42,299 nt of DNA, from positions 956,001 to 998,299 of the forward strand of contig JBAQNJ010000001.1 of assembly GCA_049303675.1 (NCBI GenBank), in the 5' to 3' direction. Both the position numbers and the translations under genes were made by a program. The notes under the pieces are model-generated. The model did no database searches and had not been told where the DNA came from. It saw only the letters and a program-made list of their open reading frames with translations. Of this stretch, positions 11,841-35,289 are shown piece after piece. Origin of the DNA: Microgenomates group bacterium (lineage in GTDB: Bacteria; Patescibacteriota; Microgenomatia; UBA12405). Each line of letters begins with the position of its first letter. The stretch's first letter is position 1.

Positions 11841-11849
11841 TGTTATAAT
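11841..11849 (+). promoter_or_regulatory. Extended -10 element TGTTATAAT upstream of tRNA-Thr(UGU)
   Basis: TGnTATAAT ends 8 nt before the mature tRNA 5' end. There is no room for another promoter before the GIY-YIG ORF. Confidence 0.5.
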
Positions 11850-11857
11850 TTCACAGC

Positions 11858-11930
11858 GCCTGAGTAGCTCAGTTGGTAGAGCATCCCTCTTGTAAAGGGA
11901 AGGTCATGAGTCCAAATCTCATCTCAGGCT
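11858..11930 (+). tRNA. tRNA-Thr (anticodon UGU), no encoded CCA, T-loop TCCAAAT
   Basis: Manual cloverleaf: acceptor gcctgag/ctcaggc, D arm gctc-agttggta-gagc, anticodon arm tccct-cttgtaa-aggga, variable aggtc, T arm atgag-tccaaat-ctcat. Confidence 0.8.
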
Positions 11931-11931
11931 C

Positions 11932-12207
11932 ATGTCTGGGTATGTATATATCCTAAAATCATTAAAGAATGATCGATATTATATCGGTAGCACAAACAAC
12001 ATATTTCGAAGATTAACGGAACACAACTCTAGTAAATGTAAATATACTTCCGAATCTGGACCTTGGGAAATTGTATTTAGTCAGGAATTTGAGACTATTA
12101 AATTGGCTAGACACATCGAATATATGTTAAAAAAACTAAAAAGCAAAAAAGTGGTTGAAATGATAATTGTAAAAAAGAAACTATTTGTTAAGAAAAAGGA
12201 AATGTAA
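11932..12207 (+). CDS. Small GIY-YIG nuclease family protein (YhbQ-like)
   Basis: MSGYVYILKSLKNDRYYIGSTNNIFRRLTEHN carries the GIY-YIG signature. The ATG starts 1 nt after the tRNA discriminator base. Confidence 0.85.
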   Translation: MSGYVYILKSLKNDRYYIGSTNNIFRRLTEHNSSKCKYTSESGPWEIVFSQEFETIKLARHIEYMLKKLKSKKVVEMIIVKKKLFVKKKEM

Positions 12208-12208
12208 A

Positions 12209-12270
12209 TTGGTAGAGCAGTCCGAAAGCTTTCGGACAGGTCGTCAGTCCGAGTCTGACTTCAGGCTCCA
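12209..12270 (+). pseudogene. Truncated tRNA copy (D-loop to CCA) with the anticodon arm replaced by an 18-nt palindrome
   Basis: Reads ttggtagagca + gtccgaaagctttcggac + aggtc + T arm gtcag-tccgagt-ctgac + ttcaggc-t-cca. It begins 1 nt after the GIY-YIG stop. Its 3' acceptor strand can pair with the 5' acceptor strand at 11858-11864. Confidence 0.6.
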
Positions 12271-12470
12271 GTTTTCATATTGACCTCAATCAATTTGGGA
12301 ATTTCTCGTATCTTTATTTCCCCCTTCAAAAAAGCAATTAGCAAGTCATCTCCTAGTCCTTCTCCTGCTTCCAGCCTCCTCCCCGTAAAATTATTTATAA
12401 AAAGTATTTCCTTAGGCCTCTCTATTGGTTTTTCTAAGTAATCTCTCATATTATCATCCACAAACGACAC
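12261..12470 (-). CDS. Hypothetical small protein
   Basis: A 69-aa ORF immediately downstream of the HAD gene. Its last codons overlap the tRNA fragment. Confidence 0.4.
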   Translation of the reverse strand: MSFVDDNMRDYLEKPIERPKEILFINNFTGRRLEAGEGLGDDLLIAFLKGEIKIREIPKLIEVNMKTGA

Positions 12471-17872: not shown

Positions 17873-17890
17873 GGATTTGATTCTTTACTG

Positions 17891-17963
17891 AGCCCAGAAA
17901 GGAACTTGAATCCTTGACCTTCCCCTTACCAAGGGGATGCTCTACCAACTGAGCTATCTGGGC
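17891..17963 (-). tRNA. tRNA-Thr (anticodon GGU)
   Basis: Manual cloverleaf: gcccaga/tctgggc, D arm gctc-agttggta-gagc, anticodon arm tcccc-ttggtaa-gggga, aggtc, T arm aagga-ttcaagt-tcctt. Confidence 0.9.
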
Positions 17964-17994
17964 GAATTGTTAATATTGGTACTGAATTATACTT

Positions 17995-18043
17995 GACCTG
18001 TCCGAAAGCTTTCGGACTGCTCTACCAACTGAGCTATCTGGGC
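17995..18043 (-). pseudogene. Truncated tRNA copy (5' acceptor to variable loop) with the palindromic anticodon arm
   Basis: The first 26 nt are identical to tRNA-Thr(GGU) (gcccagatagctcagttggtagagca). These are followed by gtccgaaagctttcggac and aggtc. There is no T arm. Confidence 0.6.
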
Positions 18044-34518: not shown

Positions 34519-35223
34519 ATGAACACCACTAACTCAAGCTTAAAGGATCGCGCAAAATTACTCAGAAAAGAGGGCCACACATATTCCCAAATCAATTCCA
34601 TTCTCGACACCTCAGTTCCAAAAAGCACTCTATCCAGTTGGCTAAAAGACATCCCCTTGTCAAAAAAAGCCGTGTCAAAAATACAAAAAATCAACAATGA
34701 CAACCTAATTAAAGCCAGAAAATCTGCTATCAATGGCAACTATCTAAAGCAACAAAAATATCTTGAATCAATCAATTTCAAAAATAAACCAGTCGCCTTA
34801 CATATAACCAACTTCGATACAGGAATGATTGCATTATCCATGCTCTGTTTGGGAGAAGCTTCCAAAGCCAAATCCAAGCACCGCAGTTTTTCATTAGGAA
34901 GTTCAGATCCACGAATAATAATTATTTTTCTTAAATTACTAAAACGTTTTTCCAATTTTGATATAACCAAAATTCGTTGCACCGTCCAATGTCGTGCCGA
35001 TCAAAACACCAAGACGTTAGAAAGATATTGGCAAAAAGTTACTCAAATTCCTTTTGATCAATTTTATTCCACCAGAATTGATCAGCGTACCATAAATAAA
35101 CCAACAAAAAATACAGAGTACAAAGGGGTATTGGTAATTGATTACTACAACAGAAATACTCAATTAATATTAGAATCTCTGGCCAACTTAGTATATAATC
35201 AACTACTTAACGAGGGCTCGTAG
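34519..35223 (+). CDS. HTH-containing protein, possibly homing-endonuclease-like; its stop codon lies inside tRNA-Ala
   Basis: Has an N-terminal HTH (GHTYSQINSILDTSVPKSTLSSWL). The C-terminal pattern LGEASKA...SSDPRIIIIFLKLLKRF...YWQKVTQIPFDQF recalls LAGLIDADG-like proteins seen next to tRNAs, but this is a weak recollection. ATG 34519 is preferred over the track start 34465. Confidence 0.45.
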   Translation: MNTTNSSLKDRAKLLRKEGHTYSQINSILDTSVPKSTLSSWLKDIPLSKKAVSKIQKINNDNLIKARKSAINGNYLKQQKYLESINFKNKPVALHITNFDTGMIALSMLCLGEASKAKSKHRSFSLGSSDPRIIIIFLKLLKRFSNFDITKIRCTVQCRADQNTKTLERYWQKVTQIPFDQFYSTRIDQRTINKPTKNTEYKGVLVIDYYNRNTQLILESLANLVYNQLLNEGS

Positions 35224-35289
35224 CGTAATGGTTATCGCGCTTCTATGGCATAGAAGAGGTTAGGGGTCCGATTCCCCTCGAGTCCACCA
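35214..35289 (+). tRNA. tRNA-Ala (anticodon GGC), G3-U70 present, encoded CCA, T-loop TCCGATT
   Basis: Acceptor gggctcg/cgagtcc, anticodon arm cttct-atggcat-agaag, T arm agggg-tccgatt-cccct, then a-cca. The final A of CCA is the A of the galU ATG. Confidence 0.8.

Follow-up and report, generated by a model that had tools for sequence, protein, structure and literature searches.

A 42,299-nt stretch of DNA from a Microgenomates group bacterium (called the window here; all coordinates refer to this whole stretch) contains a transfer RNA (tRNA) locus, tRNA-Thr(UGU), that was probably produced by the invasion of a small selfish cassette. The cassette would combine a tRNA, a gene for a Slx1-like nuclease of the GIY-YIG superfamily and a hairpin tail, and it would home into the cognate tRNA gene. 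The neighboring HAD hydrolase identifies the source organism as a relative of Shapirobacteria. An earlier note on this DNA had already described a homing-type cassette at this position. The small nuclease cassette at a tRNA gene and the displaced tRNA piece beside it stand, but the boundaries proposed for it had to be redrawn. What we observed is the anatomy of the locus, the conservation of its architecture at other loci, the presence of empty and occupied sites, the assignment of one tRNA copy as resident and the other as incoming, and an identity between cassettes that exceeds that of their flanks.

Anatomy of the locus and its empty sites

The complete tRNA, the GIY-YIG open reading frame (ORF) and a 62-nt 3′ tRNA fragment (12209-12270) follow one another on the forward strand with single nucleotides between them (Table 1). 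The coordinates and gaps reported in the earlier note were all borne out by Rfam, ARAGORN and Pfam, and the extended −10 box that it placed 8 nt before the tRNA reads TGtTATAAT. The consensus promoter scan, which requires a −35 box, does not return this box. It differs from the promoter of the relatives, which is TTGGTATAAT followed by 13 nt (compared with L087 and L089; the L-numbers are labels of the compared loci or contigs). The complete tRNA has a G7:C66 pair, an anticodon stem TCCCT/AGGGA and a T arm ATGAG-TCCAAAT-CTCAT. The stop codon of the ORF immediately precedes the copied D-loop, with 1 nt between them.

Table 1. Features of the locus, its neighbors and the second copy of the element in the window
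Feature	Position	Strand	Remarks
Extended −10 promoter-like box	11841-11849	+	Read from the sequence; 8 nt before the complete tRNA
Complete tRNA-Thr(UGU)	11858-11930	+	Read as the incoming cassette copy; Rfam tRNA, 70.4 bits; ARAGORN 11858-11931
GIY-YIG ORF, 91 aa	11932-12207	+	Pfam PF01541, E = 4.6e-16; starts 1 nt after the tRNA
Copy of D-loop, D-stem 3′ strand and N26, TTGGTAGAGCA	12209-12219	+	Exact 11-nt repeat of 11873-11883
Palindromic hairpin GTCCGAAAGCTTTCGGAC, 18 nt	12220-12237	+	Perfect, no anticodon loop; replaces the 17-nt anticodon arm
Stub of the resident tRNA-Thr(UGU)	12238-12270	+	100% identity over 32-34 nt (BLAST) to L085, L086 and L087
HNH endonuclease ORF, 138 aa	11383-11799	−	Divergent neighbor; Pfam HNH
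ORF overlapping the HNH ORF, 92 aa	11115-11393	−	Extra DNA compared with relatives
Small conserved ORF, 69 aa	12261-12470	−	97 aa in L087 and L089; C-terminus lost; reads into the inverted stub
Second copy of the element, without ORF	17964-18043	−	Upstream of tRNA-Thr(GGU) at 17890-17963 (−)
Second copy: acceptor 5′ strand and D arm	18043-18018	−	
Second copy: hairpin	18017-18000	−	Identical 18 nt
Second copy: AGGTCAAG	17999-17992	−	
Second copy: TATAAT spacer, 28 nt	17991-17964	−	

The fragment opens with the exact 11-nt repeat described in the earlier note (starting at 11873 and 12209). About 0.06 exact repeats of this length would be expected by chance within approximately 700 nt (an estimate from C(700,2)/4^11), and because relatives were compared, a chance origin of the repeat is irrelevant. 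What looks like the anticodon arm of the fragment is a palindrome without a loop, a point that the earlier note had missed. The stub that follows consists of the variable loop, a T arm GTCAG-TCCGAGT-CTGAC, the acceptor 3′ strand TTCAGGC, a discriminator T and CCA. A further 31-nt repeat with 77% identity (11901-11931 and 12238-12268) covers the variable loop, the T arm and the acceptor 3′ strand. It is 1 base out of register with the 11-nt repeat because a hairpin of 18 nt stands in for the 17-nt anticodon arm. In the T stem, each change on one strand is compensated on the other (ATGAG/CTCAT in the complete tRNA, GTCAG/CTGAC in the fragment).

The fragment matched no Rfam family at E ≤ 10 and received no ARAGORN call. 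It fails as a tRNA (RF00005) in that it has no 5′ acceptor strand and that a 7-bp stem with a 4-nt loop replaces the anticodon arm. A group I intron was not found either: no intron family matched between 11700 and 12400 even at E ≤ 10, and the upstream tRNA is complete. Across the locus (at this permissive threshold) and 15 related loci (at the gathering threshold), Rfam returned tRNA matches only, and no family spans the hairpin or the stub.

Four related contigs (L085, L086, L087 and L089) carry the locus in its empty form. The gene order is NifU, HAD, the small ORF, tRNA-Thr(UGU), GT28 and Rrf2, with neither a GIY-YIG nor an HNH gene. The comparison on which the earlier note had staked its reading thus turned up empty sites. 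The tRNA-Thr(UGU) of L085, L086 and L087 reads GCCTGAATAGCTCAGTTGGTAGAGCA-GCTGTTTTGTAAACAGC-AGGTCGTCAGTCCGAGTCTGACTTCAGGCT. Apart from the hairpin, all 45 positions of the window fragment agree with it, and only the anticodon arm, GCTGTTTTGTAAACAGC in the relatives, has been exchanged. The complete tRNA of the window shares 79.7% identity with this syntenic gene; it differs in the anticodon stem, the T arm, the 7:66 pair (A7:U66 in all three) and the promoter, and the differences are compensatory. Because the stub matches the relatives and the complete tRNA diverges from them, we assign the stub as the remnant of the resident gene and the complete tRNA as the copy that came in with the ORF. 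The hairpin is derived from the element, since the relatives keep a normal anticodon arm and the motif accompanies homologous ORFs at many tRNA genes. For the 11 nt at 12209-12219, the origin is not assignable because the cassette tRNA and the tRNA of the relatives are identical there. The incoming DNA comprises a whole tRNA with its promoter, and not only the distal part of a tRNA as had been proposed.

The element is also polymorphic at a second gene, tRNA-Thr(GGU), which is empty in L090, L091 and L092 (promoter TTGTTACAAT, 8 nt and the tRNA, without a fragment) and occupied in L213 and L215. In the latter two, the ORF most similar to that of the window (63% identity) stands directly after tRNA-Thr(GGU) and is followed by the same 18-nt hairpin. 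The T-loop of the stub behind it holds another hairpin of the same type. The window itself carries a second copy of the element at this gene. Read on the reverse strand, the resident promoter is followed by a duplicate of tRNA-Thr(GGU) positions 1-26, the hairpin, AGGTCAAG, the TATAAT spacer and the complete tRNA-Thr(GGU). Since the hairpins are identical at 18 of 18 positions between elements whose ORFs are 63% identical, the hairpin is far better conserved than the ORF.

Occupancy is reciprocal between genomes. In the genome represented by L008 and L087, tRNA-Thr(UGU) is empty and tRNA-Ala(GGC) is occupied; the window shows the reverse, with a plain tRNA-Ala(GGC) at 35214. The identical element of the window is also present in the sequencing runs SRR28062879 and SRR28062512. 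The tRNA-Ala(GGC) genes of the window and of L001, L006 and L008 were tried as a second pair with shared flanks, but the flanks could not be aligned and only the reciprocal occupancy is usable. An extra 5′ pseudo-fragment (acceptor strand and D arm) was seen in L085 (2483-2563) and L086 (1118-1198), between the promoter and the otherwise empty tRNA-Thr(UGU). It is interrupted by a different hairpin, CTCGATTCGACATCGAG, and suggests earlier activity at the tRNA-Thr(UGU) site.

At position 55, which nearly always holds a U (pseudouridine), several tRNAs of the lineage carry a C instead. Their T-loops start with TCC instead of TTC (TCCAAAT, TCCGAGT and TCCGATT). Such loops are located at 11911-11917, 12248-12254 and 35266-35272 in the window, and also in L085-L087, L047, L050 and L068.

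The hairpin and the same layout at other tRNA genes

When 80 loci from species-representative genomes were analyzed together with the window (82 ORFs), a same-strand tRNA was present within 120 nt of 75 ORFs, and 62 directly abutted one. The tRNAs are of the types Val, Ala, Asp, Gly, Pro, Glu, His, Arg, Thr, Met, Ile, Lys, Phe and Asn, and the type largely tracks the clade of the protein. Two arrangements were found. Class A, to which the window belongs, has a complete tRNA, a gap of 0-13 nt and the ORF, whose stop codon lies in or directly before the copied D-loop at hairpin-bearing loci; downstream of the stop come the D-stem 3′ strand, the hairpin, AGGTC, the T arm and the acceptor 3′ strand. 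Class B begins with a copy of tRNA positions 1-26, followed by the hairpin, positions 44 to approximately 55, the ORF and a complete tRNA. The end of the class B ORF overlaps or closely precedes this tRNA, and in many loci its stop codon is the TAG of tRNA positions 8-10 (U8-A9-G10). The partial tRNA copy opposite the complete tRNA carries the hairpin at positions 27-43. One narrow peptide pattern yielded 514 confirmed loci in species-representative genomes, and the protein family comprises 3,343 clusters at 50% identity (E ≤ 1e-10). The hosts include many Patescibacteria, Bacteroidota, Elusimicrobiota, Omnitrophota, Planctomycetota and others.

The unit formed by the hairpin, the ORF and the complete tRNA-Val(CAC) is 89% identical between L196 and L205 over 435 nt, and the flanks are 66-76% identical. 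The complete tRNAs of the two loci are nearly the same, while the stubs differ between the genomes.

Between L005 and L144, the sequence is 100% identical for 2.3 kb rightwards from base 1 of the cassette tRNA. Upstream, only a 35-nt promoter-like piece is common to both; L144 has an extra 5′ stub with a hairpin, and its far-left flank is unrelated. Because of this comparison, we regard the left border as a recombination hot spot. In Bacteroidota (L053, Parafilimonas terrae DSM 28286, 1894-2645; L059; L038), the unit is repeated in tandem after the real tRNA and consists of the ORF, a full-length pseudo-tRNA bearing the hairpin and a terminator. The pseudo-tRNAs are called tRNA-Arg by ARAGORN and by Rfam (29-35 bits). 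Genome annotations therefore probably over-count tRNAs.

Around 145 distinct homologous ORF loci, we looked for the hairpin within a radius of 250 nt. At 120 of them, the motif YCCGAY..RTCGGR occurs where a partial tRNA copy would have its anticodon arm, and at 39 loci hairpins flank the ORF on both sides. The core CCG(A)Y...R(T)CGG is invariant, the outer pairs change on both sides, and the loop mostly has 4-5 nt. The outer pairs covary, which is to be read as a description only because the instances were chosen for pairing. Hairpins are also found nested, in tandem, or in place of the T or D arms of stubs (L019, L055, L074, L078, L005 and L215). Recognition of TCNGA in the hairpin arms, as by an Hpy188I-like enzyme, was considered and dropped; this sequence is absent from the Bacteroidota variant TCCCGA. 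In L196, L205 and L007, the cassette tRNA-Val(CAC) has an anticodon arm, GTCCGTTCACATCGGAC, that nearly matches the hairpin sequence (GTCCGAY....RTCGGAC). Judging from this likeness, the hairpin may have descended from an arm of the tRNA-Val(CAC) type whose loop was zipped shut.

Metagenome contigs were also scanned independently of the ORF, using the hairpin inside its D-stem and variable-loop context as the query, which gave 132 sites. A GIY-YIG ORF is directly adjacent at 48 sites, and another 20 have one slightly farther away on the same strand. No such ORF lies within 700 nt of 42 sites (solo sites), and the remaining 22 are too close to a contig end. The tRNAs within 700 nt of the hairpin sites number 158 on the same strand versus 3 on the opposite strand. 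The solo sites and the 20 with a more distant ORF were listed one by one; of these 62, all except L185 have at least one complete tRNA on the same strand no more than a few hundred nt away, usually directly adjacent. Some solo sites, L165 among them, have no ORF remnant at all. In L104 and L172, the acceptor strand and D-loop of the stub differ from those of the adjacent complete tRNA, and the stubs sit behind what appears to be the resident promoter. The nested, tandem and solo hairpins, and those that replace T or D arms, suggest either an autonomous spread of the hairpin, with the nuclease supplied in trans, or copying by repeated break repair.

The divergent HNH ORF pointed out in the earlier note is real, but it does not belong to the conserved GIY-YIG/tRNA architecture. 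A tblastn search found no copy of it or of the overlapping 92-aa ORF at any other GIY-YIG locus, and the pair was otherwise found only in contigs L081 and L082 of the same strain. The HNH ORF shows weak similarity to the HNH regions of IscB and ZorE. The two ORFs occupy about 0.7 kb that is extra compared with the relatives, and no HNH gene lies between HAD and GT28 in L085, L086 and L089. Because it is absent from all other loci examined, we treat the HNH gene as a separate event or a passenger. The truncated small ORF marks a rearrangement breakpoint; its lost C-terminus was searched for elsewhere in the window and was not found.

The GIY-YIG protein and known systems

The Pfam match of the 91-aa protein to the GIY-YIG domain is above the gathering score and covers residues 3-72. 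Residues Y6, Y17, I18, G19, R27, H31 and E63 are invariant across 34 homologues. An AlphaFold2 model with a predicted local distance difference test (pLDDT) score of 84.9 has the expected order β-β-α-α-β-α. A profile of the homologues, compared with the PDB, matched 1zg2 (2.5e-13), 1ywl (2.5e-10), the nuclease domain of Slx1 (4e-6) and, weakly, I-TevI. Foldseek with the AlphaFold2 model gave 1zg2 and Slx1 as the best matches. The protein belongs to the UPF0213 or prokaryotic Slx1-like minimal GIY-YIG type. No second Pfam domain that could serve as a separate DNA-binding domain was found in the 91 residues, which add one helix (72-81) after the catalytic domain. No homologue of the protein was found by tblastn in 50,697 phage records, and a pattern scan of viral contigs did not find the hairpin context; in these phage records and viral contigs there is no sign of a phage vehicle for the cassette. 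Some homologues are predicted with 20-60 additional residues at the N-terminal end. In P0002, this extension, VEHPLGKGKVKDSSSFPGS, is the upstream tRNA in translation, and gene callers probably start the ORF inside the upstream tRNA.

The closest relatives in sequence and fold are Slx1 and UPF0213 (PDB IDs: 1zg2 and 1ywl; BH0048 and EF2693). In DNA repair, Slx1 acts together with Slx4 on branched DNA, and UPF0213 has no assigned function. We know of no link of Slx1 or UPF0213 to tRNA genes or to mobility. A published survey describes a stand-alone GIY-YIG domain of the UPF0213 and Slx1-like type as the minimal form in prokaryotes (PMC1564403).

By analogy, the cassette may function most like the gene hybrids made by mobile endonuclease ORFs (mORFs) in mitochondria and like the free-standing GIY-YIG homing genes. 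The mORFs of fungal mitochondria arrive with a foreign copy of part of the target gene; the native part stays behind downstream as a remnant that is identical or nearly identical to the sister species, while the functional part is divergent. The resulting gene hybrids (Allomyces macrogynus atp6; Glomus atp6, atp9, cox2 and nad3) follow the same logic and show the same pattern of evidence as the window (PMC3630166). Here, too, a foreign segment was transferred together with the ORF and a native remnant was left: the identities are 79.7% versus 100% in the window, and 89% versus 66-76% for L196 and L205. The mORFs have protein-coding targets, replace only the C-terminal part and encode larger enzymes, whereas the window cassette has a tRNA target, a whole replacement tRNA, a 91-aa nuclease and a hairpin over the anticodon arm of the remnant. 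Among the free-standing genes, SegB of phage T4 is reportedly a GIY-YIG homing endonuclease in a tRNA cluster that cleaves the DNA of related tRNA genes, with co-conversion. It is said to have about 220 aa with a DNA-binding region and to act between co-infecting phages, with no stub, hairpin or replacement tRNA.

Integrase islands at tRNA genes likewise have an intact tRNA on one side and a partial 3′ copy on the other. They depend on a tyrosine or serine integrase, the core of their attachment (att) site is the 3′ end of the tRNA, and they carry kilobases of cargo. In contrast, the window cassette has no integrase, one 276-nt ORF as its 'cargo' and a repeat interrupted by the hairpin; the search for an integrase found only the GIY-YIG and HNH ORFs between or beside the window repeats. 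No domain of an IS200/IS605 or REP/RAYT HUH (Y1) transposase was found in the Pfam-scanned ORFs of the window locus (HNH, HAD and GT28), and the ORFs of the other loci were compared with the GIY-YIG profile only. In synthetic 'cleave and rescue' drives, a nuclease destroys an essential resident gene and a linked, recoded copy that resists it provides the rescue. These drives are engineered, based on Cas9 and eukaryotic, whereas the window cassette is natural and the resistance of its tRNA is only putative. No description of a GIY-YIG/tRNA/hairpin cassette was found in the full-text literature searched or in the 2006 survey of the superfamily; most subscription journals lie outside this coverage, so an earlier description is possible. 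The cassette is apparently an undescribed, widespread variant of the homing-type elements, one that replaces tRNA genes.

How the locus may have arisen and what it would mean

We infer the following course, including what the nuclease does and cuts, what the hairpin is for and how the ORF is expressed. A cassette made of a functional tRNA-Thr(UGU) with its own promoter, the 91-aa GIY-YIG gene and a tRNA-derived tail ending in the hairpin would have recombined with the resident tRNA-Thr(UGU) at the anticodon arm. From the right side of the hairpin at least to the end of the tRNA (12238-12270) the DNA is assigned as resident, and the hairpin, together with the ORF, the complete tRNA and the promoter to its left, as incoming. 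In the window, L004 and L104, no more than approximately 5-7 nt separate the recombination junction from the hairpin. The resident gene would be destroyed in this event and the cassette tRNA would assume its essential function. Loss of the cassette would be costly because the tRNA that it carries replaces an essential resident gene. The putative nuclease would break unoccupied cognate tRNA genes in or beside the anticodon-arm region, and the break would be repaired from an occupied allele, the tRNA-derived sequences and the flanks providing the homology. The hairpin would serve as a non-cleavable substitute for the target, as a cis-acting site bound by the nuclease, or as both. The ORF would be expressed by read-through from the tRNA promoter, and its mRNA would probably be leaderless, or nearly so, after 3′ processing of the tRNA; this is suggested because the start codon in class A lies 0-13 nt after the tRNA.

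Several points weigh against this course of events. The homing of an ORF is not the whole story because about one third of the hairpin sites have no ORF nearby. The hairpin cannot be explained as a mere 'scar' since its sequence is strongly conserved; it must have a sequence-specific role, and among the candidate roles we rank a binding or immunity site for the nuclease first. Single mismatches in the hairpin are biased toward G-T on the sense strand over A-C (14 versus 4), which hints at a role at the RNA level. If the anticodon-arm region is the target, the tRNA of the cassette itself would also be at risk, and immunity would need sequence differences. The 91-aa protein lacks the DNA-binding domain that the known site-specific GIY-YIG homing enzymes (I-TevI and the Seg proteins) possess, and its nuclease activity is predicted from sequence. 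The identity of the cassettes above that of their flanks could partly reflect constraint. Finally, the block in the window is inverted relative to the HAD and GT28 flanks and accompanied by the extra HNH DNA, and its left junction is not reconstructable.

Some of these points would suit a transposon bounded by hairpins. Here, the unit hairpin-(ORF, tRNA)-hairpin would be mobile and the Slx1-like nuclease would act as a structure-specific 'transposase' that cuts extruded stem-loops or cruciforms; insertion would take place at the anticodon arm or other stem-loops of tRNAs, and hairpin-only copies would be non-autonomous and mobilized in trans. The loci with hairpins on both sides of the ORF fit this explanation, as do the nested and tandem hairpins, the replaced T and D arms, the many solo sites, and the presence in the window of one ORF and two identical hairpins at two tRNA-Thr genes. 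Relatives of Slx1 also cut branched DNA. However, the stubs that flank a cassette are often not the two halves of one tRNA (L196, L205 and L144), and many loci have a single hairpin. The tRNA segments beside the hairpins match the local tRNA, which fits homologous recombination better than cut-and-paste, and we know of no GIY-YIG transposase in prokaryotes. We consider such a transposon unlikely. Quite unlikely, in our view, is a module of toxin and rescue at the RNA level, in which the protein would act on tRNA or tRNA-like RNA, the cassette tRNA would be resistant, and the transcribed stub would be a decoy or regulator that binds the nuclease, with the logic of an addiction system. Such a module is favored by the mismatch bias, which corresponds to G-U pairs on the sense strand, and by the hairpin being always embedded in a tRNA-like scaffold, whereas its spacing from the ORF is not fixed. 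A fusion of a prokaryotic Slx1-like domain with a TrmH-type tRNA Gm18 methyltransferase, from which an RNA role has been suggested (PMC1564403), also speaks for it. Against it, the resident gene is rearranged at the DNA level, which an explanation through RNA alone must add separately, and the stub in the window, without the 5′ acceptor strand and the 5′ strand of the D-stem, is not tRNA-shaped on its own. All characterized GIY-YIG enzymes, to our knowledge, are DNases.

Taken literally, the model of the earlier note has a 336-bp block (11884-12219) inserted into the D-loop with an 11-nt target duplication, and either 3′ half could be used with the same 5′ strand. The repeat is exact, TTCAGGC of the fragment can indeed pair with GCCTGAG with one G-U pair, and the artificial join of 11858-11883 with 12220-12273 folds as a cloverleaf (−30.9 kcal/mol). 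Even so, this model is very unlikely. It is contradicted by the empty sites, as the uninterrupted gene of the relatives has a normal anticodon arm, and the hairpin lies outside the proposed block and yet derives from the element. The 5′ acceptor strand is part of the incoming tRNA, to judge from G7 in its G7:C66 pair, so that the pairing with the fragment reflects common descent; as a conserved RNA feature the pairing was rejected, being impossible in L004. Of the two versions for which tRNA calls had been proposed, 11858-11930 alone is called as a tRNA, but the join has no anticodon and is returned by ARAGORN as 'tRNA-???'. An old tandem duplication of the tRNA, with a housekeeping GIY-YIG repair gene between the copies, had been named as the refuting alternative. 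tRNA genes often duplicate in tandem, and UPF0213 proteins also occur away from tRNA genes. The comparison of occupied and empty sites contradicts a duplication, however, since the relatives possess a single copy without an ORF. Conservation lies with the non-functional copy, which is identical to the tRNA of the relatives, and the functional copy is divergent; moreover, the hairpin and the nucleotide-precise junctions of ORF and tRNA recur across phyla. We regard this origin as extremely unlikely.

Beyond the invasion of this one locus by a homing cassette, it is possible, though we propose it only tentatively, that a widespread and previously unrecognized class of selfish elements exists in Patescibacteria, Bacteroidota, Elusimicrobiota, Omnitrophota and others. 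In such a class, the nuclease, the rescue tRNA and the hairpin would form a natural 'destroy-and-replace' drive, the hairpin would be a cis site recognized by the nuclease in DNA or RNA, and the hairpin-only copies would be non-autonomous.

If this is true, foreign copies accompanied by a nuclease of about 90 aa would overwrite tRNA genes again and again in many uncultivated bacteria, and the replacement of tRNA genes between species would be a process driven by a nuclease. Both tRNA phylogenies and the counts of tRNA genes in metagenome-assembled genomes would be affected; stubs are sometimes called as tRNAs (L053). The elements would be a natural counterpart of gene drives that pair a nuclease with a rescue copy, acting here on an RNA gene. 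The hairpin would be a defined and testable candidate for the cis-element of a minimal GIY-YIG enzyme. The UPF0213 or prokaryotic Slx1-like family, with its structures solved but no role assigned, would in part gain a function, and this would be the first biological role for the orphan UPF0213 family.

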